Assembly (NCBI GenBank): GCA_034669905.1
Contig: JAXMOL010000003.1
Coordinates: 128,001-192,000, forward strand
Direction: 5' to 3'
Source: Candidatus Hydrogenedentota bacterium
Lineage (GTDB): Bacteria > Hydrogenedentota > Hydrogenedentia > Hydrogenedentales > JAEUWI01
Length of the DNA stretch: 64,000 nucleotides
In this document: positions 1 through 12,082 of the stretch, one piece after another
Numbering within the stretch: position 1 is the first letter of the stretch
Layout of the letters: every line of letters starts with the position of its first letter
Notes under the pieces: model-generated
What the model saw: only the letters and a program-made list of their open reading frames with translations
The model's database searches: none
What the model was told of the DNA's origin: nothing
Translations under genes and position numbers: made by a program

Positions 1-185
1 GTGGGGGCCACCGGGGAAGGGTTCGCCGCCCTGCCGGGCGGGGGTTGGGCCTAATATTTGGGAAATAAGGCTATATATGGTATCTTGTAAAGAGTTTACA
101 GCTATATGTGGCATTTCTGCCCTTTCCTCGACGTCGGGGTTTTGGCCAAGGCGTTGGGGTGAAAGAAGTTGGGGAGAATTGCCGT

Positions 186-214
186 TTGACCGTTTTTCGG
201 TGCAATGATACAAT
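186..214 (+). promoter_or_regulatory. sigma70-type promoter of the pilus operon
   Basis: TTGACC (186-191), 17-nt spacer, extended -10 TGnTACAAT (206-214); implies the true start codon lies downstream of the GTG at 218. Confidence 0.6.
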
Positions 215-283
215 CTAGTGTGGTCTTCCTTGGGGAACTGTTTTCCATCGCGGACTGCCGCCCCCCGTACCCGAAACCGGAGT

Positions 284-2848
284 ATGCCCAGCCTGATGCT
301 CGATAGTACCAACAGCAGCGGAATCCGAGATGGCAATGCCACCGATCCGCCCGCGCTCCATTTGGGGGAGTTGTTGGTGGAGGCCAAGCTGATTACCGCC
401 GAGCAACTGGCTACGGCGGAGGCGAAACGGGCGGAGACGGGTGAGTTCCTGACCAAGATCCTGGTGCAGTCAGAGTGCCTGAGTCAGGAAGACCTGAGCG
501 CGTGTTTCGTTAAGCGATGCAAGATTCCCCATATCAGTTTGCTTGATTACGATGTGGGCAGTGACGTGCTGGCCCTGGTCCCCCAGGAAGTCTGCCTGAA
601 GCATGGCCTGATTCCCATCGACAAGCTGGGGCGTATCCTCACGGTGGCCATGGTGGACCCGCTGGATACGGAAGCGCTCGACGTAGTGAAAAATGCCTCG
701 CCCGAGTTGCGCATTAAGCCCATTCTCTGCAATTGGGCGCACTTCGAGCAGGTCACCAAGAAATATTTCGCCGCGCAAAACGCGGGTAAAGGTGGCGGGC
801 AAATGAGTGCCGCGTCACTGGGCCTGGCCGCCCTTGCGCCGAAACCGGTCGCCAAAGCGGAGGAGGCGTCGCCCGCGACACCTGCCCCGGCGCCGACGTC
901 CGCTCCCGCTTCATCTTCTTCGGGCGCACCGGCGGCCTCCCCCCCGAGTCCCGCACCGAGCGCTGCCGCCCCCGTGGATACCGGCCCATTGGTGGCTGCC
1001 ATCCAATCGGGTTTCCAGCATGTGAGCCAGTCTTTTCTGGAGCAAGTGCGGGCCCAATCGGCTCCGGCTCCCATCGAGATGCCGCCCTTTCCGGTGGAAG
1101 CCCTGACCCAGGCCCTTCAGTCTTCCCTGCGGGATGTGGTGGAAACGACGCTCAAGGCCGTACCCGCCCCCGCAGCCGCACCCGAAGTGGCTGCGCCTCA
1201 GGCGGTGAGTGCGCCCGATTTTTCCGGGTTGGAAACGTCATTCCGTGCGGCAATCGGCGATCTGAAAGAAGCCCTGCAATCGTCCATGACGACCCCCGCT
1301 CCCGCTCCCGCACCCGAAGCGGCAGCCCCCCCTGCGGCCGTGGCTCCGGTGGTGAGTGCGCCCGATTTATCGGGGCTGGAAACGTCGTTCCGTGCGGCCA
1401 TCGGCGATCTGAAAGAAGCCCTGCAATCCGCCATGACGACGGCGGCACCGGCGGCGGCATCGACCCCCGGCCCGCCACCGGCTCCCGCGATCTCTCCCGC
1501 CCTGGAAGCGACCCTGCAGCAGCTTTCCGATTCCCTTTCCCGGGAGTCCAACGAGCTATCGGGCGAAGCCATGGCGGAGGTAATTCGAGATAGTGTGGGG
1601 GGTGCCATGCAAGAAGCGTTGGCGGGCGTCATAGTCCAGCTTCGTGCCACGGCCAAGGCCGAAGAACCCTCGCCGCCCCCCTTCGACGCCTTTGCGGAAA
1701 TGATACGGGATACGCTGGGTGGAATCATGCAGGAAACCCTGGCGACCATGCTCATACAATCCAAGGCCAATGCGTCCCAGGAAGGCAATGGCCGTCTGGA
1801 AGAGGTGATCGCGGCCTTGCGTGAATCCCAATCGGGTATCGTGCATTCCATGCAGAGCCTCTTGACGTCCAATCAGCAGTCGCAGGAGGTGCAGAGCGCC
1901 CGGCTGGCTGCCCTGGCGGAAGCGGCCGTGGAATCGTCTCAACAGACCACCCAATTGCTGGAAGCCACCCTGGTGCAGCGGGAGCGCGAAGAAAACTTGC
2001 GTGGGGGCCGTGCGCCCCATGACTCCGTTTCCCCCTTTGGGGCCCCGGTGCCCGGCGCGGTCCCCGATGCGGCCCTGGAAGAAGACGATGCCCGCGTGCG
2101 GGATGCCCTGGAGTCGGAAGTGCCTCTGGAGACCCTGACGTTCAGCACCTTTTTCCCGGGAGACGCCAACGCCTTCACGGCAAAGATTTGCCAGGCGGTG
2201 GCCGCCAAGCCGGGAAGTGAATACAATCCCCTGTTTCTCTATGGGCATGTGGGGTTGGGTAAGACCCACCTTATCAGCGCCGTGGGAAACCATATTAAGC
2301 AGGCCAACCCCCAACAGCGGGTGGGCTATGTTTCTGCCAGCCACTTTGCCCGCCGCCTGAAAGAGGCGGTGGCCGCCGATGCGCAGATGGCTTTTCGTGA
2401 TAATTACTGTCATTGGGATGTGTTGATTCTGGATGACATTCAATTCATGGGCGGCCGGGTGGAAGCACAAGAAGAGTTCTTCCACATCTTTAACGTCTTG
2501 CACCAGCGCGGCCGTCAGATTATCATTGCCGGAGATAAGGCGCCCGATCGTCTGGGTCTGCTGGAGCAGCGCCTGGTGTCCCGATTTGCGAGTGGCATCG
2601 TGGCCGAATTGAAGCCCCCCGAGTGGGAAACGCGGATGAAGATTCTCCGCCAGCAACTCAAGACCAGTGGGGTGACCTTGCCCGAAGAGATTTGTTCTTT
2701 GGTAGCCATGCGCGTTTCCGACGATATTCGTAAGATGGTCGGATCGCTGCGCAAGATTGCCGCCTTTGCGTCCCTTTCCAACGAACCTATCAGTGTGGAG
2801 ATGGCGACAGAGATTCTCAGTCATATCGGTGGAGAAGAAGCGGCATGA
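284..2848 (+). CDS. MshEN (GSPII_N)-domain protein fused to a DnaA-type AAA+ domain, lacking the DnaA DNA-binding domain IV
   Basis: N-term LGELLVEAKLITAEQL...VLALVPQEVCLKHGLIPI...LTVAMVDP (PilB/GspE N-domain); C-term TFSTFFPGDAN, YNPLFLYGHVGLGKTHL, VLILDDIQF, QEEFFHIFN, RLVSRF; start uncertain (218/284/296). Confidence 0.85.
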   Translation: MPSLMLDSTNSSGIRDGNATDPPALHLGELLVEAKLITAEQLATAEAKRAETGEFLTKILVQSECLSQEDLSACFVKRCKIPHISLLDYDVGSDVLALVPQEVCLKHGLIPIDKLGRILTVAMVDPLDTEALDVVKNASPELRIKPILCNWAHFEQVTKKYFAAQNAGKGGGQMSAASLGLAALAPKPVAKAEEASPATPAPAPTSAPASSSSGAPAASPPSPAPSAAAPVDTGPLVAAIQSGFQHVSQSFLEQVRAQSAPAPIEMPPFPVEALTQALQSSLRDVVETTLKAVPAPAAAPEVAAPQAVSAPDFSGLETSFRAAIGDLKEALQSSMTTPAPAPAPEAAAPPAAVAPVVSAPDLSGLETSFRAAIGDLKEALQSAMTTAAPAAASTPGPPPAPAISPALEATLQQLSDSLSRESNELSGEAMAEVIRDSVGGAMQEALAGVIVQLRATAKAEEPSPPPFDAFAEMIRDTLGGIMQETLATMLIQSKANASQEGNGRLEEVIAALRESQSGIVHSMQSLLTSNQQSQEVQSARLAALAEAAVESSQQTTQLLEATLVQREREENLRGGRAPHDSVSPFGAPVPGAVPDAALEEDDARVRDALESEVPLETLTFSTFFPGDANAFTAKICQAVAAKPGSEYNPLFLYGHVGLGKTHLISAVGNHIKQANPQQRVGYVSASHFARRLKEAVAADAQMAFRDNYCHWDVLILDDIQFMGGRVEAQEEFFHIFNVLHQRGRQIIIAGDKAPDRLGLLEQRLVSRFASGIVAELKPPEWETRMKILRQQLKTSGVTLPEEICSLVAMRVSDDIRKMVGSLRKIAAFASLSNEPISVEMATEILSHIGGEEAA
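1204..1440 (+). repeat. intragenic direct repeat, 2 x ~90 bp (1204-1293, 1351-1440)
   Basis: both copies encode VSAPD(F/L)SGLETSFRAAIGDLKEALQS(S/A)MT. Confidence 0.9.
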
Positions 2849-2938
2849 GGCCGATACAAGAAGAGACACGACCCATGCAGCACATCGGTCTACGATTCAG
2901 CGGCGTTTTAAACGCCTTACCAGGAAAGGAGGGCACGA

Positions 2939-4663
2939 ATGGCGACACGCGCAACTAAGAAGCGATTGCCCGACATGTTGCTGGAACAGCAACTCGTGAC
3001 CCAGGAGCAGTTGCAGGAGTGCATCAACCTGCACCGTCAGACCGGCCAGAGCCTGCCGAGCCTCCTGGTGAGTAAGGAGTATCTTTCCGAGGAAGACTTG
3101 GTTATCACCCTGAGCGAGCAGCTGGGGATTCCTCACATTCGCGTGGCCCACTATTCGATCCCGAAAGAGGTGCTTTCCGAGGTGCCCGAGACCCTGGCGC
3201 GTCAGTATCAGATGTTGCCGGTGAGTGTCACCGGGGATGTGTTGACCCTGGCCATGGCCGATCCGCTGAATATCATGGCCCTGGACGATCTGCGGATGCT
3301 GACGAGTTTCGAAATCGAGCCGGTGGTGGCGGTGGCTTCCGAGCTGGCGGGTGCAATTGAAAAGCACTACGGCGGGGGTAAGGCCGAAGACCTCTATGCA
3401 TCGCTCGTCGGTACCGAGGAGAAAGATGGGGATGTTGAAGAGCTCAAGGCGACGGACGATATCGAAGACGTCTCCAAGCTCGAAGTGGGCGCCGAAGATG
3501 AGCCCGTCAAGAAGCTGGCCCGACTGATTCTTTTCAACGCCCTCGAACGGGGTGCGAGTGATATTCACCTGGAGCCCTTCGAGAAACTGATTCGCATCCG
3601 CTATCGTGTGGACGGAACCCTGGAAGAGGCCAAAGCCCCGCCCAAGAGTTTGCAACAGAACATCATCGCCCGTTTCAAGATCCTCTGTGGTTGTCGTATC
3701 GACGAGCACCGGCTCCCCCAGGATGGTCGCTTTCGTATCCGCTATAACGCCCGCGAGATCGACTTTCGTGTGGGTTTTCTTCCATGTAAATACGGTGAGA
3801 AGATCGTACTCCGTGTGCTGGACCAGTCTAATCTGACGCTGGGCCTGGAAACCCTGGGATTCGAGCCCCAACCGGTAGGCGCCATGTTGGAGGCCCTGAA
3901 GCTTCCCCACGGAATGCTGTTGCTGACGGGGCCTACGGGTTCCGGTAAGACGACCACGCTCTATAGTGCCCTGCACAAGCTGAATTCACCAGAAGCCAAC
4001 GTGGTGACGGTAGAAGACCCCATCGAATATGACCTTTTCGGGGTGAACCAGGTGCAGGTACAGTCCACCATCGGCTTTACCTTCGCTTCGGCCCTGCGCC
4101 AGATCCTGCGTCAGGACCCGGATATCGTGATGGTCGGTGAAATTCGAGACGGTGAAACGGCCGACGTTGCGGTTAAGGCCGCGTTGACCGGTCACCTCGT
4201 ATTGAGTACCTTGCACACCAACGACGCGGCCGGTGTATTCCCCCGTCTGACGGATATGGGCATCGAGCCTTTCCTGGTGCAGTCCTCCGTGGCCCTGGCG
4301 GCCGCACAGCGACTCTTTAAGCGGGTTTGTTCGGACTGTAAGGAGCCCATCAACGTACCGGATGAGGTCTTGGATCGCATCCAGTGGCGCGGCTTTGACT
4401 ACCTGGAAGAAATACAGTTCGTGCGTGGGCGGGGATGTAGCCGTTGTAAAGAGACGGGTTACCGCGGCCGTGTCGCCGTGATTGAAGCCCTCCTCAACTG
4501 GCCGGAATTGCAGCCCCTGGTGTTACAACGGGCCTCGGGCTACGATATCAAGAATCAGGCCATCGCCTGTGGCATGCAGACCTTGCGTCAAAATGGCCTG
4601 GCCAAAGCCGCCAAAGGCGTGTCGACCATCGAGCAGGTCTTGGAGCATACGAGTCACGACTAG
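2939..4663 (+). CDS. pilB: type IV pilus assembly ATPase PilB (GspE/PulE family)
   Basis: ASDIHLEP, RLPQDGR, GPTGSGKTTTLY, TVEDPIEY, LRQDPDIVMVGEIRD, CSDC/CSRC Zn motif; RBS AGGAGG. Confidence 0.93.
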   Translation: MATRATKKRLPDMLLEQQLVTQEQLQECINLHRQTGQSLPSLLVSKEYLSEEDLVITLSEQLGIPHIRVAHYSIPKEVLSEVPETLARQYQMLPVSVTGDVLTLAMADPLNIMALDDLRMLTSFEIEPVVAVASELAGAIEKHYGGGKAEDLYASLVGTEEKDGDVEELKATDDIEDVSKLEVGAEDEPVKKLARLILFNALERGASDIHLEPFEKLIRIRYRVDGTLEEAKAPPKSLQQNIIARFKILCGCRIDEHRLPQDGRFRIRYNAREIDFRVGFLPCKYGEKIVLRVLDQSNLTLGLETLGFEPQPVGAMLEALKLPHGMLLLTGPTGSGKTTTLYSALHKLNSPEANVVTVEDPIEYDLFGVNQVQVQSTIGFTFASALRQILRQDPDIVMVGEIRDGETADVAVKAALTGHLVLSTLHTNDAAGVFPRLTDMGIEPFLVQSSVALAAAQRLFKRVCSDCKEPINVPDEVLDRIQWRGFDYLEEIQFVRGRGCSRCKETGYRGRVAVIEALLNWPELQPLVLQRASGYDIKNQAIACGMQTLRQNGLAKAAKGVSTIEQVLEHTSHD

Positions 4664-4802: not shown

Positions 4803-5876
4803 ATGGCCACACCGAGCATTAAAGAGTTGCTGACCAAGGCGATTAAGGCGGGCGCAAGCGACATGCATATTGTCGTGGGGGCGCCGCCCATGATTCGGTT
4901 GCACGGTGGGTTGGAACCCCTGGGGCGCTATGAGCGCTTCACGGCGGAAGAGACCCAGGAAGTCATCTACACGGTGATGAACGAAGATCAGGTGGCGGAA
5001 TTCGAATCAACCCGGGAATGCGATCTGTCGTTCGGTATCGAAGGGCTGAGCCGATTTCGACTGAACGTCTACCGCGACCGCGGTTCGGTGGTGGCGGCGT
5101 TTCGTGCCATCCCCTTTGAGATTCTGTCCTTCGAGCAACTCGGCCTTCCCCGGGTGATTGCAGACTTTGCCTACAAGCCTTTCGGACTGGTGTTGGTATG
5201 CGGCCCGACCGGTAGTGGTAAATCCACGACGCTGGCCTCGGTGATTGACAAGATCAACCGCGAGCGCAATACCCACATCATTACGATTGAAGATCCCATC
5301 GAATATCTCCATCGGCACAACCGCAGCGTGGTGAATCAACGGGAAGTACACGCCGATACGGCGTCTTTTTCGGCGGCGCTGAAGCGGGTGCTGCGTCAGG
5401 ATCCCGACGTGATTCTGATCGGTGAAATGCGGGACACGGAAACGATCCAGGCGGCCCTGACCGTGGCAGAAACCGGCCACCTGGCTTTTGCCACCCTGCA
5501 CACCAATGATGCCCTCCAGACCATGAACCGTATTATCGACGTGTTCCCGGCGGCCCAGCAGGCCCAGGTACGTACCCAGTTGTCCTTCGTGTTGGAGGCC
5601 GTCGTGGTGCAGCAATTGGTGCCCCGGGCCGACGGAATGGGGCGGGCCCTCTGCATGGAAATCATGTTGGCCAACCCCGCTATTCGTTCACTCATTCGTG
5701 CCGAAAAGCTGGAGCAGATCCCTTCCATGATTGAAATCGGCAAGGGCGAAGGCATGTTAACCATGAACCAATCCCTGTTTCGTCTGTCCAAGCGGGGCAT
5801 CATTACGACGGAGATGGCCTTCAAGCGCAGCGCCGATCCGGAAGGGTTGCAGCACCTCATGGAAAAAGGAATGTGA
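4803..5876 (+). CDS. pilT: type IV pilus retraction ATPase PilT
   Basis: GASDMHI, GPTGSGKSTTLAS, TIEDPIEY, AETGHL, TLHTN, AIRSLIRA (AIRNLIRE-like); RBS AAGGAG before ATG 4803. Confidence 0.93.
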   Translation: MATPSIKELLTKAIKAGASDMHIVVGAPPMIRLHGGLEPLGRYERFTAEETQEVIYTVMNEDQVAEFESTRECDLSFGIEGLSRFRLNVYRDRGSVVAAFRAIPFEILSFEQLGLPRVIADFAYKPFGLVLVCGPTGSGKSTTLASVIDKINRERNTHIITIEDPIEYLHRHNRSVVNQREVHADTASFSAALKRVLRQDPDVILIGEMRDTETIQAALTVAETGHLAFATLHTNDALQTMNRIIDVFPAAQQAQVRTQLSFVLEAVVVQQLVPRADGMGRALCMEIMLANPAIRSLIRAEKLEQIPSMIEIGKGEGMLTMNQSLFRLSKRGIITTEMAFKRSADPEGLQHLMEKGM

Positions 5877-7519
5877 TCCGACATCTCGTTCGATACACGT
5901 CGTCTGTTCTTGAGTACCTTCGTCCGTCCTATGATGGCCCGTCTACGTGGCTATGGTTTGTGGGACTGGCGCGTATCGGGATGCTTCTGGTGGTGGCGGT
6001 GGGTGCCCAGTTGGTGGCCGATGAAGAGGAAGCCTTTCGCCATCTTCTAATGGCGATCTATGCCTCGGCGTTTGCCAGTAGTCTGTGGTATCTCATCGTG
6101 CTCCGGCGGGAAAACTCGGTCCCGGCCATTCTTACCTGGACCCAGGTGTTGGTCGATTTCGGGGTCGTGGCGGCCACCATCAGTTACACCGGCGGTCAGG
6201 CCAGCTTCTTCACGTTCCTGCTCGTTATCGTGATACTCGAGGCCGGCGTCCTGATGGGGCTCCTCCAGGGCTTCGTGTTTGCGTCGATGGCCTCCGTGTA
6301 CATGCTCTACCAGGTCTTCATCACCGCACCTTCGGCGCCCGATCAGCTGGCCCATTGGTATCATTATCTGATTCAGGGCCTCGCCTTCTTTTTCACCGCG
6401 TTCATCAGTGGCTACTGGAACCAGCGCGTAAGCCGGATGAAACAGTTCCAGCGCGAGATTCTGGATAACATGAACAGCGGCTTTCTCATTACCGACGCCA
6501 AGGGCCTGGTGGTCGCGATGAACAAGGCCGCCTGTGGGATCCTGAATCTCCGGGAGGAGAACGTGGCCGGCCGTCATGTGGATGGCATTATCGTGCCCGA
6601 GTCGGGGGCGGAGTGTCCGGTGACCACGGCGTTGCGCCTTCGGAAAGATTTCACCAGCTATGAGTTTTACACCCAGATCGGGCCGGAAAGCTCGCGCCTG
6701 CTGGGACTGACCACCAACCGTATCCGGGATGCCCACGGGCACGTGACCGGGCTCATCGCTTCCTTTACCGACCTGACCGAGATGGCCCGCATGCGCAAAG
6801 AGCTGCAGCAACAGGACCGGATGGCCGTCATTGGTGAATTGTCCGCCGGTCTGGCCCATGAAATTCGGAATCCCGTGGCGTCGATACGGGGAAGTATGGA
6901 CGAGCTCCAGCGCAACATTGAGTCGAAAGATCTGGTGGCCCGTCTGGCCGCCATCGCGGTGCGGGAGTCCGATCACCTTAACGAGATTGTGACCGGGTTT
7001 CTGGATTTCGCCCGTGACCCGAGCCGCCGCTATGCCCTTTTTGACGTGCGTGACGTCGCCCGCGAAGTGGAAGAACAATTGCTCCGGAAGTATGGCGCGG
7101 ATGGCGTTTCGATAACCTTACTGTCCCCCAACGAATCCTGTCTGGTTACGGGGGACAAGACCCAGATATGGCAGGTCTTTACCAATCTCGGGCAGAACGC
7201 CATCGAGGCCATGTCGGGCACCGGCGCCCTGGAGATCGTGTTGGACACCAACGAGGGGCGTGGTCCTATCGAAATTTGTTTTAATGACAACGGGCCGGGA
7301 ATTGCACCCGACAAAGTGTCCCGAATATTTGAGCCGTTCTACACGGAAAAGGCCCGGGGGGTCGGAATGGGACTCGCCATTTGCATGCGCATCATAACGG
7401 CCCATGATGGAACCATTCAGGCCGCATCCCGTGCCGGTGGCGGTACCGCAATGAGCGTTCGCCTTCCGCTGGTGCAGCAAGATGCCGCAGAGCAGAGCGC
7501 CGAGAAAACGAAAGGTTAA
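5873..7519 (+). CDS. pilS: membrane sensor histidine kinase, PilS-like
   Basis: about six TM helices, PAS, LAHEIRNP H-box, DNGPGI, FEPFYT, GVGMGL; position upstream of a pilR-like gene. Confidence 0.8.
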   Translation: MIRHLVRYTSSVLEYLRPSYDGPSTWLWFVGLARIGMLLVVAVGAQLVADEEEAFRHLLMAIYASAFASSLWYLIVLRRENSVPAILTWTQVLVDFGVVAATISYTGGQASFFTFLLVIVILEAGVLMGLLQGFVFASMASVYMLYQVFITAPSAPDQLAHWYHYLIQGLAFFFTAFISGYWNQRVSRMKQFQREILDNMNSGFLITDAKGLVVAMNKAACGILNLREENVAGRHVDGIIVPESGAECPVTTALRLRKDFTSYEFYTQIGPESSRLLGLTTNRIRDAHGHVTGLIASFTDLTEMARMRKELQQQDRMAVIGELSAGLAHEIRNPVASIRGSMDELQRNIESKDLVARLAAIAVRESDHLNEIVTGFLDFARDPSRRYALFDVRDVAREVEEQLLRKYGADGVSITLLSPNESCLVTGDKTQIWQVFTNLGQNAIEAMSGTGALEIVLDTNEGRGPIEICFNDNGPGIAPDKVSRIFEPFYTEKARGVGMGLAICMRIITAHDGTIQAASRAGGGTAMSVRLPLVQQDAAEQSAEKTKG

Positions 7520-7524
7520 GTACC

Positions 7525-8922
7525 GTGTCAGTTAATCACCGAGTGCTGGTTGTAGACGATGAGCTCAGCATGCGTGAATTGTTGGAAATTGTGCTCCAGA
7601 ATGACGGCTACGAAGTGGATACGGCCGAAGATGTGGAGAGCGCACAGGAGAAGCTCGAAAACAACCACTACGACGCCGTGCTGACGGACCTCTATATGGG
7701 GCAGGATCGGGATGCGGGGATGCGGCTGCTCAGTTGGCTGGAAGAGAACAGCCCGGGCACGCCTTCAATCATGATGACGGCCCATGGCTCGGTGGAGACC
7801 GCGATCGAGGCCATGAAACGAGGCGCCGCCGACTACGTCATGAAGCCCTTCAAGAATGACGAAATCCGGATTCTGATTGAGCGGGCCATCGCGCAGCGAA
7901 ACCTGCTGCGGGAAAACATCGCCCTTCGCCAGGAGCAGGCCCGCCAGGGCAATATCGACAACATGATCGGTAAAAGCCCGGCATTCCAAAAGGCCATGAA
8001 AATGATCCGGCGCGTCGCGGCGCTCCCAAGCACCGTCGCCGTCCACGGTGAAAGTGGCGCGGGTAAGGAGTTGGTCGCCCGGGCACTCCACACCCTGAGC
8101 AACCGTGCCGACAAACCTTTCGTGGCCATTAACTGTGGTGGTATCCCCGAGAACCTCCTGGAGAGCGAGCTCTTTGGTCACAAGAAGGGCAGTTTTACCG
8201 GGGCCACCGATGACAAGGAAGGCCTTTTCGTGGTCGCCAATGGCGGCACGATTTTCCTCGATGAAATCGGTGAAATGCCCCTCATGCTCCAGGTGAAGTT
8301 GCTCCGGGTCCTCGACAACAATATCGTGACGCCCGTAGGCAGCACAACCGATATCAAGGTAGACGTCCGCCTGGTTTCGGCCACCAACCGGGATTTGGAG
8401 AAGATGGCGGAGGAGGGCACGTTTCGAAGCGATTTGTACTACCGGCTTAACGTGATTCCCATTCAGGTGCCGCCCCTGCGCCAGCGCCGCGATGACATTC
8501 CGCTGCTTTGTCGACATTTCGTGGCACAACATGCGAAGAACATGGGCTGTGAACAGCTGGAAATCAGTGCCGAGGCCCAGGCCGCCTTGAACAACTACCA
8601 TTGGCCCGGCAACGTCCGGGAATTGGGCAACGTGATGGAGCGGGCACTGGCGCTGTGTGCCGATGATGAGATTGGACTGGATGATCTGCCGGAAAACCTG
8701 CGGAACTATGAGCCGGACCGGAGCGTGGCCACGTCGAAAGCCGCGGTCCTTCCCGATGAAGGCATGGACATGGAACAGCTCATTGCCGATCTGGAAATCG
8801 ACCTCATCAAGCAGGCCCTGGAAAAGGGACGCTATTCCCAGAAACGGGCAGCGAGCCTGCTGGGCCTCACCGCACGCTCGTTGCGGTATCGGTTGCAGAA
8901 ATACGATCTGGAAGGTCAATAG
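7525..8922 (+). CDS. pilR: sigma54-dependent response regulator, PilR/NtrC family
   Basis: receiver domain, GESGAGKE, ESELFGHKKGSFTGA, WPGNVREL, C-terminal HTH ending RSLRYRLQK. Confidence 0.85.
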   Translation: MSVNHRVLVVDDELSMRELLEIVLQNDGYEVDTAEDVESAQEKLENNHYDAVLTDLYMGQDRDAGMRLLSWLEENSPGTPSIMMTAHGSVETAIEAMKRGAADYVMKPFKNDEIRILIERAIAQRNLLRENIALRQEQARQGNIDNMIGKSPAFQKAMKMIRRVAALPSTVAVHGESGAGKELVARALHTLSNRADKPFVAINCGGIPENLLESELFGHKKGSFTGATDDKEGLFVVANGGTIFLDEIGEMPLMLQVKLLRVLDNNIVTPVGSTTDIKVDVRLVSATNRDLEKMAEEGTFRSDLYYRLNVIPIQVPPLRQRRDDIPLLCRHFVAQHAKNMGCEQLEISAEAQAALNNYHWPGNVRELGNVMERALALCADDEIGLDDLPENLRNYEPDRSVATSKAAVLPDEGMDMEQLIADLEIDLIKQALEKGRYSQKRAASLLGLTARSLRYRLQKYDLEGQ

Positions 8923-9028: not shown

Positions 9029-12000
9029 ATGACGACCATCTTTTCCTGGCTTCGAATTCACTGGAAAAAAGTCCTGGTGTTTTCATTGAAGTTGGTGTTT
9101 ATTGTTTCCCTGTTTGTCCTCCTGTTTCGCCCGGAGACCTTCGGCCTTCCAGCAGACTTGTTTCGCGACATTACGCCACAACAGCTCTGGCATGATCTGA
9201 AGGCCATTGATCCCGGGACGGCTGCCGTCTGGTTCGGCTTTGCCGTGGCCGTAAAGCTGGGCGGTATCTTCGCGGGGGTCATGCGTTGGCGTATTCTGCT
9301 TCGCGCACAGGGCGTACACATCCCGTTCTGGTACCTGACGAAATGCTGGTTCTGGGGGCGGGCCATCGGGCTGTTTCTTCCGGGAACCCTGGGGCTCGAT
9401 GGGTATCGATTGGTGGAATCCGCACGCTATACCGGGGAGCCCATCAAGTGCGCCACGGTGATTGGCGTGGAGAAACTCACGGGGATTATCGCACTTTTTT
9501 CCCTGGTCTTTTTGACCCTGCCCCTGGGACTCCGACTCTTTCCCATCAACCTGGCCCTGCTCGCGGTGGTGCTGCTTATTCTGGCTGGGTTTATCGGAAC
9601 CAGCCTGCTGCTGTTGCTCCAGCCTCGTGTCATTCAGGTGTTCATGGCTTCCTTGCCGTTGCCCGGTGCCGTGCACGAAAAGGTCAACAAGTTGGGCATT
9701 GCGGCCACGGCCTACAGTGCCCATCGGGGAGCCCTCTTTAAGGCGCTGTTTTTCGGGCTGTGTGTACACCTGGGCATTTGCCTCATGTATTTCGGCACCG
9801 CCTCGGCCATCCGCGCAGAGAATACCGGCATCCTGGAAATCCTCTTTGCGAGCCCCCTGCTTATCGTGGGCTCGGTCTTTGCCCCCACGGTCAGTGGCGT
9901 TGGCGTGCGGGAAGTGGTGATGACCACCCTGCTGGGCGGCGTCTCCAGCGGCTCCCAGGCCCTCCTCTTTGGCCACCTGGGCCTCTGGTTCGGGGAAGTG
10001 ATTCCCTTTCTCCTCAGCACGCCCCTCCTGCTCCTGACGGGCCGTCCGAAGCGGGAAGACCTCGAGGAAGAGATGGCGGTCGTGCGCGAGAAAATCGGGA
10101 CAGGCGAAGAGGCCGCCCTCCATCTGGACGCCGATGAACTGGCTTTCTATCGCCGTAAGGTCTTCGGAACCCTGACGGCGGGTACCCTGGCGGGATTTGT
10201 GGCCGGTGCTTTCATCGGGCTGGTGGAAGCGGAATGGATTGAGACCACGCTGGGTAATCTTTCTGAGACCGGCATTTTTACCTGGTCGGTGCTTGCCTAT
10301 GGACTTATCTTTGGCGCGGTCGGAAAAGGCGTGGCCTTCGGGCTGCTCTTTATGTACCTGCTCACCAACCGCTTCGCCGCGGTATGGTGGAACTATGGCC
10401 TCGCCTTCGGGGGGACGACCATTATAGGCGGTTTGGTCATTGGCCTGTTCCGCTTGCGGCGGGATGTCTACGATGGCCATATGCCGGATACGGCCGGCTT
10501 GTTGCAGTTGGGGCTGCTGGTGGGCTCGATAGCGGTCCTGGGGGGCCTCCTGTTGCTCTTTGGGGCACGCAGCGTGGCGCGACGCTCCGGTGAGAGTCGG
10601 CGGGTCCTGTGCGCCGCAGGGGTGGCCGTTTACGGGCTTTTCGTCGGGCTCGGGGTGCTGCTCGGTATCATTCACGAGACGGCTCAGCCCGTGCCCACCG
10701 ATGGCGTGGCCATCACCACGTCGTCTGGTCCAAATCTTATCCTCATTGCCGTGGATACCCTGCGCGCCGACTATCTCCCGGCCTACAATCCCGATATCGA
10801 AACGAAGACCCCCCATCTGGATGCTTTCCTGAACGACGCCATTCGCTTTGAGAAGGGCTATTCCCAGGCTTCGTGGACGAAGGCGTCCTTTGGGTCGATT
10901 TTTTCCGGCATGTATCCCGAGTGCCACACGGCGGTGACCAAGACGGCCAGCCTGCCCGAAGATGTGGAAACGGTGGCCGAGCTATTGCGGGGTGGGGGCT
11001 ATTACACCCAGGGCTATGCGAATAACCCGAACATCACCTCGGTCTTTGGTTACGACCAGGGCTTCGATACCTACGTGGACATGAAGAAGGCCATCCATTT
11101 CGGGGCGACCCCCTCGGCGGCCCGCCTTTCCATGTATGAAGTGCTGGTCAAGGTGCGGGAGATAGTCAACACCCGCCTCGGTCGGGCCATTGAGGTGACC
11201 GACTATTACCAGCCTGCCACGGTGGTGAAAGAAACCGTGCTCGCGTGGCTCGACAGTGACCGGTTTCCCATGGCACGGCCCTTCTTTCTCTTTACCCACT
11301 TCATGGACCCCCACGACCCCTTTATGGACCCGGAAGCGCCGGGTGGCGGTTACGGCCGGAAGCGCATGGGCAATCCGGATCCGGAATTGCACCTCGAGGG
11401 GATGCAGCGGGCCTATCGGGGAGAGATCGAGTATCTGGACCAGGAGTTAGGGGCCTTCTTCGAGGGGCTCAAGACCCGGGGTATCTACGACGACGCAGTG
11501 ATTATCCTGACGGCCGACCACGGGGAGGAGTTCCACGAGCATGGCGGGTGGTGGCACGGCCAGACCCTTTATGAAGAACAGACCCACGTGCCCTTTATCA
11601 TCAAGTTGCCGGGGAACGCCCAGGGAGGCACGGTGAACCCCCATTTCGCCCGTAACCTGGATATTGCCCCCACCTTGCTGCATTTCGCCGGCGTGGAGAA
11701 GGGGAAGATGATGCAGGGACAGGCGCTCTTTGATGCGTCGGGCGCGGCGACCAATCACGACATCGGGTATAGCTACGCCGAGAACAATTTCGAGGGTATC
11801 GTGCTTCAGGCGCTCCGTAGTGTCAGCCACAAACTGATTCGTGCCAATGAGGGCAACAAGCGGAACCTCGCCCCCCTGGAGCTCTATCGTATGGACACCG
11901 ACCCGCAGGAGCAGACGAACGTGGTCGGGGAGTCGGCAGAGGCGCCGGTGGTGGACCTGTTAAACCAGGCGATCGACGACTACCTCAAGATCTGCGAAGA

Positions 12001-12082
12001 AAACGCCGTAGAGCCCGCGGCACCGGCCATGATGGATGCCGAAACAGCCGGACAACTCGAGTCCCTGGGGTACCTGGAATAA
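9029..12082 (+). CDS. fusion of a lysylphosphatidylglycerol-synthase-like (flippase-like) TM domain and a sulfatase/alkaline-phosphatase superfamily domain
   Basis: RWRILL...FLPGTLGLDGYR...SGVGVRE in the N-half; NLILIAVDTLRAD, ASWTKAS, HFMDPHDP, TADHGEEF..HG and terminal LESLGYLE in the C-half. Confidence 0.8.
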   Translation: MTTIFSWLRIHWKKVLVFSLKLVFIVSLFVLLFRPETFGLPADLFRDITPQQLWHDLKAIDPGTAAVWFGFAVAVKLGGIFAGVMRWRILLRAQGVHIPFWYLTKCWFWGRAIGLFLPGTLGLDGYRLVESARYTGEPIKCATVIGVEKLTGIIALFSLVFLTLPLGLRLFPINLALLAVVLLILAGFIGTSLLLLLQPRVIQVFMASLPLPGAVHEKVNKLGIAATAYSAHRGALFKALFFGLCVHLGICLMYFGTASAIRAENTGILEILFASPLLIVGSVFAPTVSGVGVREVVMTTLLGGVSSGSQALLFGHLGLWFGEVIPFLLSTPLLLLTGRPKREDLEEEMAVVREKIGTGEEAALHLDADELAFYRRKVFGTLTAGTLAGFVAGAFIGLVEAEWIETTLGNLSETGIFTWSVLAYGLIFGAVGKGVAFGLLFMYLLTNRFAAVWWNYGLAFGGTTIIGGLVIGLFRLRRDVYDGHMPDTAGLLQLGLLVGSIAVLGGLLLLFGARSVARRSGESRRVLCAAGVAVYGLFVGLGVLLGIIHETAQPVPTDGVAITTSSGPNLILIAVDTLRADYLPAYNPDIETKTPHLDAFLNDAIRFEKGYSQASWTKASFGSIFSGMYPECHTAVTKTASLPEDVETVAELLRGGGYYTQGYANNPNITSVFGYDQGFDTYVDMKKAIHFGATPSAARLSMYEVLVKVREIVNTRLGRAIEVTDYYQPATVVKETVLAWLDSDRFPMARPFFLFTHFMDPHDPFMDPEAPGGGYGRKRMGNPDPELHLEGMQRAYRGEIEYLDQELGAFFEGLKTRGIYDDAVIILTADHGEEFHEHGGWWHGQTLYEEQTHVPFIIKLPGNAQGGTVNPHFARNLDIAPTLLHFAGVEKGKMMQGQALFDASGAATNHDIGYSYAENNFEGIVLQALRSVSHKLIRANEGNKRNLAPLELYRMDTDPQEQTNVVGESAEAPVVDLLNQAIDDYLKICEENAVEPAAPAMMDAETAGQLESLGYLE

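Follow-up and report, generated by a model that had tools for sequence, protein, structure and literature searches.

A DnaA-type AAA+ module fused to an MshEN domain is encoded in front of pilB in the phylum Hydrogenedentota

The fusion gene and its locus

The window, by which we mean the whole analysed stretch of 64,000 nt from contig JAXMOL010000003.1 (GCA_034669905.1), contains close to its start a gene whose product joins an MshEN domain, through a long linker, to a DnaA-type AAA+ module (Table 1; all coordinates count from window position 1). The open frame extends over 218-2848 on the plus strand without interruption, and its translation from ATG 284 comprises 854 aa; ATG 296 is the start chosen in database entry P0002, of 850 aa. 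A sigma-70-like promoter match is located about 70 nt 5' of ATG 284, but is a lead only, because three such sites occur in 9.1 kb against a chance expectation of 3.3. The gene on the 5' side is divergent, and pilB, pilT, pilS, and pilR follow downstream on the same strand, so that the fusion gene heads a set of pilus genes, as a first-pass annotation had proposed. No terminator-like site was found in the 91-nt gap between the fusion gene and pilB, whose product scores 630.5 bits with TIGR02538, below the cut-off of 675.65. Pfam revealed no competence genes in the operon.

Table 1. Features of the fusion gene and of the pilus genes downstream, in window coordinates
Feature	Position	Strand	Basis or remark
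Sigma-70-like promoter match TTGACC, 17 nt, TACAAT, TG ahead of -10	186..214	+	10/12 consensus positions
MshEN-linker-DnaA(III) gene	284..2848	+	854 aa; alternative start ATG 296 = 850 aa
MshEN domain, residues 21-169: four-helix MshEN_N and alpha/beta MshEN_C	344..790	+	PF05157, AF2, Foldseek
c-di-GMP motif region, 53 residues, residues 26-78, degenerate	359..517	+	4/8 and 3/8 key positions; NF053729
Linker, residues 170-616, ~447 aa: Pro/Ala-rich first part of low confidence, then helices	791..2131	+	AF2, alignment
Duplicated 141-nt unit, 1172-1312 and 1319-1459, copies 81% identical	1172..1459	+	Repeat search
Two copies of a family-specific helix motif, residues 427-458 and 467-496	1562..1771	+	HMM, regex, AF2
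Single predicted 70-residue helix, residues 504-573	1793..2002	+	AF2 pLDDT ~80
Conserved short motif R-x-[RK]-H-A-S-V-x-P-F-G, residues 576-586, here RAPHDSVSPFG	2009..2041	+	102 members
DnaA domain III AAA+ module with lid, residues 617-851	2132..2836	+	Pfam, PDB alignment, AF2, Foldseek
pilB (MshEN + T2SSE ATPase)	2939..4663	+	Pfam; 91 nt after fusion gene
pilT-type retraction ATPase	4803..5876	+	PF00437
pilS-type sensor kinase (6TM_PilS, PAS, HisKA, HATPase_c)	5873..7519	+	Pfam
pilR-type sigma-54 activator (REC, Sigma54_activat, HTH_8)	7525..8922	+	Pfam

A search for the architecture matched 141 protein clusters, and among the 120 matches listed nearly all carry both PF05157 and PF00308. 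The fusion was found at 63 species-level loci, with pilB directly downstream in 62 of them; at the remaining one the contig ends. The next gene after pilB is pilT in 48 of the 62 loci, and the upstream genes are not conserved. The fusion is thus a real gene, not an assembly chimera, and is conserved throughout the uncultured phylum Hydrogenedentota in front of pilB. One relative (G040) encodes, ahead of an orthologous pilB (69% identity), a 317-aa protein with MshEN domain and linker but without the AAA+ module, and tblastn detected no AAA+ module in its 7-kb locus. Since this form fills the same locus, head and linker are the part tied to pilB, and the synteny with pilB, the AAA+-less relative included, ties the fusion gene to the pilus. 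The genome also has a separate canonical dnaA, encoding all four domains, on another contig, and in two single-contig relatives the fusion gene and dnaA are far apart and therefore not linked. Canonical DnaA was found in 30 of the 31 genomes searched, the one without it being 83% complete.

Domains of the fusion protein

The anatomy given in the first-pass annotation, an MshEN domain followed by a linker and a DnaA AAA+ module without domain IV, is borne out by Pfam, translation, and alignments. PF05157 matches residues 80-164 (E 9.9e-15), and the AF2 model of the MshEN domain, with pLDDT above 90, resembles PilF GSPII-A (9g1w, rmsd 2.1 over 140) and MshE (5htl) in Foldseek. The domain is indeed a paralogue of the N-domain of the adjacent PilB, with 31% identity over 142 aa (E 2e-24), and shares fold and domain family with Vibrio cholerae MshE (5HTL) and the N-domains of PilB and PilF. 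The partner of MshEN in secretion ATPases, however, is T2SSE, whereas here it is a DnaA ATPase; Pfam did not find the T2SSE ATPase domain PF00437 in the fusion, and the neighboring PilB and PilT both have it.

The c-di-GMP site of the window fusion is predicted to have decayed. The first-pass annotation rightly read HLG rather than RLG in the motif, but the decay reaches beyond that: with the roles of the motif residues taken from PMC5013675, 9 of the 16 scored positions are changed, leaving four key positions of eight in motif I and three of eight in motif II. The curated c-di-GMP motif model NF053729 gives 37.9 bits, below its cut-off of 38, which makes a c-di-GMP input to this protein doubtful. 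The same model accepts all 10 of the distant family members examined (48.9-66.8 bits), so that the putative motifs score well in distant members and appear degenerate in the window's clade. Of 64 loci with a pilB match, 51 passed a position filter and served for a comparison of the fusion and PilB motifs; at the other 13 the head was absent or could not be read. The published relaxed pattern is matched by motif I of the fusion in 13 of the 51 loci and by motif II in none; Arg starts motif II in MshEN c-di-GMP receptors, whereas position 1 in the fusion is always F or Y. The position-3 Gly of both motifs is present in the fusion in 44 of the 51 loci and absent from PilB in all of them. That the fusion took over c-di-GMP sensing from a PilB no longer able to bind it is a weak lead only, because the window PilB passes the motif model (43.6 against 38).

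The linker is close to the ~450 aa of Pro/Ala-rich and helical sequence that had been claimed, and its length varies through the family. Most of residues 170-403 have a pLDDT below 50 in the AF2 model. The pair of 141-nt units reflects a recent duplication, internal to the gene, of a 49-aa stretch of the linker, which an 89%-identical relative (P0004) lacks; Tandem Repeats Finder, run over 1-3000, reported no repeats, though the repeat search detected the pair. The two copies of the helix motif are modelled as helices with pLDDT 62-80. An HMM of this motif, run against 39,488 ORFs from the six-frame translation of the genome, matches the fusion gene alone, and by regex at least one copy is found in 94 of 102 family members. 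In the short motif that follows the long helix, the best conserved residues among the 102 members are V582 and F585 (95 each) and S581 (94), followed by R576 (85) and H579 (80). A look-up of linker residues 405-612 in the ESM Atlas returned no usable match.

Domain III of DnaA is the switch that governs ATP-dependent assembly at replication origins. In the fusion, PF00308 (Bac_DnaA) matches residues 617-774 (E 8.8e-53), and residues 617-848 align without gaps to domain III of Bacillus subtilis DnaA (8bv3/8btg; E 1.5e-59); the fold superimposes on 8bv3 with TM 0.90 and rmsd 1.9 Å over 228 residues at 41% identity (Foldseek). The alignment with the genome's own DnaA, gapless over 234 aa at 38% identity, ends at residue 369 of that protein, of which domain IV starts at 376, so that the fusion does stop where domain IV would begin. 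Pfam found neither domain IV (PF08299) nor DnaA_N (PF11638) in the fusion, and the sole PF08299 match of the genome is on another contig (C19). Walker A (GHVGLGKTH, residues 654-662), Walker B (LILDDIQF, 714-721), the RLVSRF arginine-finger box (763-768), and the DIRKM sensor II region (814-818) can all be read intact from the translation, as described before. The ATP-switch residues among them, namely K660 in Walker A, D717/D718 in Walker B, R763/R767 in box VII, and R816 in sensor II, are invariant or nearly so in the 102 members and the same in canonical DnaAs. Judged from sequence, the DnaA-type set of ATP-binding and hydrolysis residues is intact, arginine finger included. A comparison of 30 fusion modules with 41 canonical DnaAs gave 62 columns that are at least 90% conserved and identical between the two groups, including Walker A/B, QEEFFH.FN, RL.SRF, and the sensor II Arg, and 12 positions that are conserved in the fusion but different from canonical DnaAs.

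Affiliation of the AAA+ module

Hda and HdaA are AAA+ relatives of DnaA that lack domain IV and inactivate DnaA-ATP. To our knowledge, Hda is the sole well-known DnaA offshoot without a DNA-binding domain, and it still acts on replication. The fusion is likewise a DnaA-related AAA+ protein with an arginine finger and no DNA-binding domain, but its module belongs with DnaA rather than Hda, a point on which the first-pass annotation had made its interpretation depend. It scores 284.5 bits with the DnaA model TIGR00362 and 108.3 bits with the Hda model TIGR03420, in both cases below the curated cut-off (343.9 and 194.8, respectively), and the best PDB E values are 1e-59 for DnaA and ~1e-12 for Hda, the latter with an rmsd of ~5 Å and 20-23% identity. 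Unlike Hda, the fusion bears a 616-residue N-terminal extension with MshEN, and neither the Hda-type hexapeptide nor the QL[SD]LF clamp-binding motif, in the consensus forms that we assumed for the regexes, occurs in any of the 102 family members.

With DnaA (8BV3/8BTG, Thermotoga 2Z4R, and Aquifex 1L8Q/2HCB/3R8F) the fusion has in common the AAA+ fold with lid, Walker A/B, box VII, and sensor II. It differs from DnaA in having another N-terminus, neither domain I nor domain IV, and a place in a pilus operon rather than beside dnaN or the origin. In a quick-search tree, supported by SH-aLRT only, subject to long-branch warnings and with 11 outside DnaAs chosen by similarity, the fusion modules form a deep clade of their own on a long branch apart from all canonical DnaAs. 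An origin by duplication of dnaA within the phylum is not supported, since the canonical Hydrogenedentota DnaAs lie apart from the fusion clade, together with DnaAs from other phyla (SH-aLRT 96). In the literature on MshEN, DnaA, Hydrogenedentota, and pili we found no published description of an MshEN-DnaA fusion. The label 'chromosomal replication initiator protein DnaA' is wrong for many database entries.

A role in the pilus machine and its alternatives

The first-pass annotation had left open whether the fusion co-oligomerises with DnaA or is a DnaA fold repurposed for the pilus. Adjacency to pilB in 62 of 63 loci, the lack of linkage to dnaA, and the AAA+-less variant in front of pilB favor the second reading. 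On balance we lean, with some reserve, towards a role for the fusion in the type IV pilus machine, which it would regulate or scaffold under the control of ATP, and not in replication. It would make physical contact with pilus proteins. The MshEN head, as a paralogue of the regulatory N-domain of PilB, would dock at the pilus base, at the site of the PilB head or at its partner; a complex prediction of PilM (24-row alignment) with the head (residues 20-172), run without controls, scored 0.00. With ATP bound, the DnaA-type modules would associate with one another in head-to-tail fashion by way of the arginine finger R767, as in DnaA, perhaps aided by the long helices, so that the MshEN heads would become clustered. 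Hydrolysis, slow as in DnaA, would return the assembly to its starting state and thereby time the work of PilB or PilT. In most family members, c-di-GMP bound to the head may modulate the assembly, a part of the model for which motifs are the sole basis. Because these motifs have decayed in the window's clade, control there would fall to the ATP state or another input, possibly through the RxRHASVxPF motif. The role of the ATPase is the least supported step, since the AAA+-less relative shows that adjacency to pilB needs no AAA+ module. DnaA domain III is not known to self-assemble in isolation from DNA and from domains I and IV.

As an analogy for this working model, FimX-PilZ-PilB offers a case in which an accessory protein controls the extension ATPase through an MshEN-type head; these regulators are c-di-GMP-linked and target the N-terminal PilB domain. 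The Xanthomonas citri PilB-N/PilZ structure (7LKM) is among the structure matches of the fusion, which, however, is unrelated in sequence to FimX and PilZ and has its own MshEN head and AAA+ module. If the pilus model holds, the fusion would be the first instance of the initiator ATPase being put to use in a machine for motility or adhesion; if not, it would be a direct wire between pili and replication. Either way, throughout a whole phylum a type IV pilus operon has as a constant member an initiator switch that keeps all its catalytic residues. The family also provides a natural experiment, with c-di-GMP motifs that score well in distant members and have decayed in the window's clade, and with one lineage that does without the ATPase.

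The chief alternative is that the module joins the resident DnaA in a common assembly, where it would cap or seed the ATP-dependent DnaA oligomer or, by means of the arginine finger, spur ATP hydrolysis by DnaA in the manner of Hda. This would tie initiation to the pilus, surface, or c-di-GMP state. Closest to DnaA in sequence and fold (38% identity over 234 gapless aa; TM 0.90 to B. subtilis domain III), with its RL.SRF box and ATP site invariant, the module keeps all that DnaA needs for DnaA-DnaA contacts, which would allow hetero-oligomers, and canonical DnaA is present as a possible target in 30 of 31 genomes. The gene nevertheless adjoins pilB and is not near dnaA, the clamp-binding motif is missing from all 102 members, the Hda score is far below its cut-off, the branch from canonical DnaAs is long with 12 conserved-but-different positions, and a variant without the AAA+ module occupies the same locus. 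We consider a replication link of this kind unlikely. Its most specific form, distinctly unlikely in our view, is a pilus-held initiator ATP switch that joins or caps the resident DnaA oligomer upon a change in pilus or c-di-GMP state, so that surface contact gates replication. In Caulobacter, pilus, c-di-GMP, and cell cycle are known to be coupled indirectly, and such a switch would be a hard-wired version of that coupling.

It is less likely still that the protein is a passive scaffold or landmark, in which head and helices organise pilus proteins, for example at the pole, and the AAA+ module is a structural oligomerisation knob whose ATP turnover is irrelevant. The long, variable, partly disordered linker with its family-specific helices would suit such a role, as would the relative in which head and linker stand alone, but the Walker A Lys, the Walker B Asp-Asp, the sensor II Arg, and the arginine finger are invariant or nearly so phylum-deep, which is not expected if hydrolysis is irrelevant. 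The Ile conserved in the 41 canonical DnaAs at the position that we take to correspond to E. coli V211 is variable in the fusion, and the position aligned with the GK(E)xTQ-box Lys stays basic, here as R725. According to PMC5716108, domain III of initiators binds ssDNA, with V211 as a binding residue in E. coli DnaA. That the fusion is a DNA-handling partner, its module binding incoming ssDNA in pilus-dependent uptake, is barely credible, R725 notwithstanding, given the variable hydrophobic contact position and the lack of visible competence genes in the operon.

The pilus ATPases account for part of the MshEN repertoire of this genome, in which 20 MshEN ORFs comprise 7 secretion ATPases and 13 proteins with MshEN joined to other domains, a distribution that suggests a general docking or sensing tag. 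The partner domains of these 13 are GGDEF, HDOD, cNMP-binding, Ser/Thr kinase, and FHA domains and coiled coils.

Anatomy and distribution of the fusion

The first-pass annotation described a protein composed of an MshEN head, a long linker, and a DnaA-like AAA+ module that ends where DNA-binding domain IV would begin, and this anatomy is correct at every point checked, because Pfam, alignments, an AlphaFold2 model, and its superposition all agree with it. The uninterrupted reading frame gives 854 aa if begun at ATG 284; the database copy (P0002) starts four codons downstream, giving 850 aa. The Pfam scan matched MshEN (PF05157) at residues 80–164 and the DnaA ATPase domain (PF00308) at residues 617–774, and found neither the DnaA N-terminal domain nor domain IV. 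Residues 617–848 align without gaps to domain III of B. subtilis DnaA (E 1.5e-59). The module likewise aligns without gaps over 234 aa to the DnaA of this genome, with 38% of residues identical, which places the C-terminus about seven residues short of the start of that protein's domain IV. In the AlphaFold2 model, computed with 102 family members as input, pLDDT is above 90 at residues 21–169 and 617–851; most of the linker is poorly modelled, with helices predicted at 427–458, 467–496, and 504–573. The modelled C-terminal domain superimposes on DnaA domain III with a TM score of 0.90 and an rmsd of 1.9 Å, whereas structures of Hda, the DnaA-related AAA+ protein that acts on DnaA, superimpose much more poorly (~5 Å).

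A word-index protein search with the fusion returned 141 clusters. Among the 120 listed, nearly all combine PF05157 and PF00308, with identities down to ~35%, and most come from Hydrogenedentota metagenome bins; several of their public records bear the source name "chromosomal replication initiator protein DnaA", wrongly, as the proteins lack domains I and IV. A scan in which a single genome represented each GTDB species found 63 loci with the fusion, whose record titles, as deposited, include 41 beginning Hydrogenedent-, 13 beginning Nitrospir-, one Poribacteria, and one Bathyarchaeia. A family shared this widely shows that the fusion is not an assembly chimera, as the annotation had considered it might be, and the separate canonical gene that the annotation proposed to confirm is also present: contig C19 carries a complete dnaA with all four domains. 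Of 31 genomes of the order, 30 yielded a canonical DnaA and the exception is 83% complete; on two single-contig relatives the fusion gene and dnaA lie far apart. Full-text literature searches found no description of the family. The genome also encodes a third DnaA-related protein (570 aa), in which a weak N-terminal DnaA-type AAA+ domain (PF00308, E 8e-7; Walker A GPEGSGKSH) is followed by ~400 aa that are Ala/Gln/Glu-rich and coiled-coil-like, with no domain IV.

Coordinates of the fusion and associated features (window positions unless a contig, C, or extracted locus, L, is named)
Feature	Location	Strand	Remarks
Fusion reading frame	218-2848	+	window translation
Direct repeat, 11 nt	70-80 and 101-111	+	31 nt spacing
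Promoter-like site	186-214		consensus scan only
Divergent upstream gene	L017:11212-14892, ends ~390 nt upstream of 284	minus	1226 aa, ankyrin repeats and AlgX-type SGNH hydrolase-like domain
Synthase-sulfatase fusion gene	9029-12082	+	1017 aa, after pilR
MshEN+linker gene of relative G040	C17, L186:2700-3653	minus	natural truncated family form, no AAA+
Third DnaA-related protein	C10:~99725-101437 (L003:244-1956)	minus	570 aa
Other non-secretion-ATPase MshEN ORFs	C8 (L092:1463-2803), C5 (L094:1363-3060), C18, C19, C45, C3:70934-72361, C20, C26, C49 (two), C44, C3:36805-40833		loci L189-L200, L203

Association with pilB

The gene directly downstream of the fusion, on the same strand, is pilB in 62 of 63 loci, and the remaining locus meets a contig end; pilT follows in 48 of the 62, usually succeeded by pilS and pilR. 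A consensus scan detected no terminator-like site in the 91-nt gap between the fusion and pilB. In G040, the orthologous pilB (69% identity) is directly preceded by a gene for a 317-aa protein of MshEN and linker alone, and tblastn found no DnaA-type module in this 7-kb locus. Such short forms are otherwise rare (nine matches, several on short contigs). Thus, the link with pilB resides in the head and linker; nearly all loci, though not every one, add the ATPase.

The best-supported reading, which we favor by a modest degree, is that the fusion is a pilus-associated ATP switch or scaffold. Given its position beside pilB, the head would dock at the pilus base, and the protein may self-assemble with ATP and thereby set the timing of PilB and PilT.

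Across the 63 loci, conservation of the upstream genes is limited to close relatives, which alone keep the divergent 1226-aa gene and, past it, the histone-deacetylase-family and Ser/Thr kinase genes. The direct repeat (GCTATATATGG / GCTATATGTGG), possibly a regulator binding site, is found between the divergent genes and precedes the promoter-like site. The 1017-aa gene, which joins a lysyl-phosphatidylglycerol-synthase-type membrane domain to a sulfatase/phosphodiesterase domain, is kept at this place in closer relatives only.

The ATPase module and the linker

Comparison of 30 fusion modules with 41 canonical DnaAs identified 62 columns that are at least 90% conserved and identical in both groups, including Walker A, Walker B, QEEFFH.FN, box VII RL.SRF with the arginine finger, and the sensor II arginine. 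Because the module retains all of DnaA's assembly residues, we keep as a rival the proposal that the fusion acts through DnaA and so is linked to replication, which we consider unlikely. An Hda-type or pentapeptide clamp-binding motif occurs in none of the 102 family members. Twelve columns are conserved in each group yet differ between them, and at one further position the Ile that canonical DnaAs conserve gives way to variable residues in the fusion modules; we take this position to correspond to E. coli V211. V211 is one of the two ssDNA-binding residues of E. coli DnaA (PMC5716108). A quick maximum-likelihood tree unites the fusion modules in a single clade on a long branch (SH-aLRT 100), apart from the canonical DnaAs of the same phylum, which cluster with those of other phyla (SH-aLRT 96); the tree had no outgroup, outside sequences were few, and long-branch warnings were raised.

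The linker varies widely in length and carries zero to four copies of a family-specific helix motif (regex; 51 of 102 members have two), which within this genome is found in the fusion gene only. About 30 residues ahead of the ATPase lies a short motif, R-x-[RK]-H-A-S-V-x-P-F, whose core positions are conserved in 80–95 of 102 members; our guess is that it is phosphorylated or serves as a docking peptide. The window's fusion has also undergone a recent internal duplication of 141 nt. The tree, the conserved-but-different positions, and the pre-ATPase motif are additions of the present analysis, as are the AAA+-less variant, the clade-specific decay of c-di-GMP motifs, and the genome-wide MshEN repertoire.

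c-di-GMP motifs and the MshEN repertoire

The head shares 31% identity with that of the adjacent PilB. The MshEN c-di-GMP site consists of two 24-residue motifs with a five-residue joint and defined key residues (PMC5013675). N-termini were complete in 92 of 102 members; when these were scored at eight key positions in each motif, 64 kept six or more in both. The position-3 Gly of motif II is missing in all 22 proteins nearest to the window's fusion, which itself keeps four of eight key positions in motif I and three in motif II. Scores from the curated NCBIfam motif model, whose cut-off is 38 bits, point the same way: 48.9–66.8 bits for ten distant members, 37.9 for the window's fusion, and 26.8 and 41.7 for its clade-mates P0011 and P0028, respectively; the motifs appear to have decayed in this clade. 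The truncated G040 protein scores 55.3 bits. Even for distant members, the fit to the relaxed published pattern argues against calling the protein simply a "c-di-GMP sensor": 13 of 51 loci have a matching motif I, and motif II matches in none, because its first residue is always F or Y. In the adjacent PilB, the position-3 Gly is absent from both motifs in all 51 loci; since the window's PilB nevertheless passes the curated model (43.6 bits), we refrain from calling PilB insensitive to c-di-GMP. With 17 GGDEF matches, the genome can make c-di-GMP.

A profile of the fusion head found 20 MshEN ORFs in the genome: seven secretion ATPases and 13 others. The latter comprise the fusion, one cNMP-binding, one PAS-GGDEF, one FHA-GGDEF, and three HDOD proteins, two Ser/Thr kinases, and four proteins with coiled-coil or no other named domain, MshEN being C-terminal in the last two classes. 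MshEN thus seems to serve this organism as a general tag, and a constant location next to pilB is seen for the fusion alone. Two of the 13, the cNMP-binding and the PAS-GGDEF protein, belong to the same MshEN subtype as the fusion, scoring 195 and 188 bits, respectively, against its profile. Judged by its gene content, the genome carries many type II secretion or type IV pilus-like systems, with secretins (at least seven above the Pfam cut-off), many platform-protein genes, and 26 T2SSF domain matches, as a rule two per protein. It encodes two PilM types, one of which, on contig C38, is a 741-aa protein with a long low-complexity tail.
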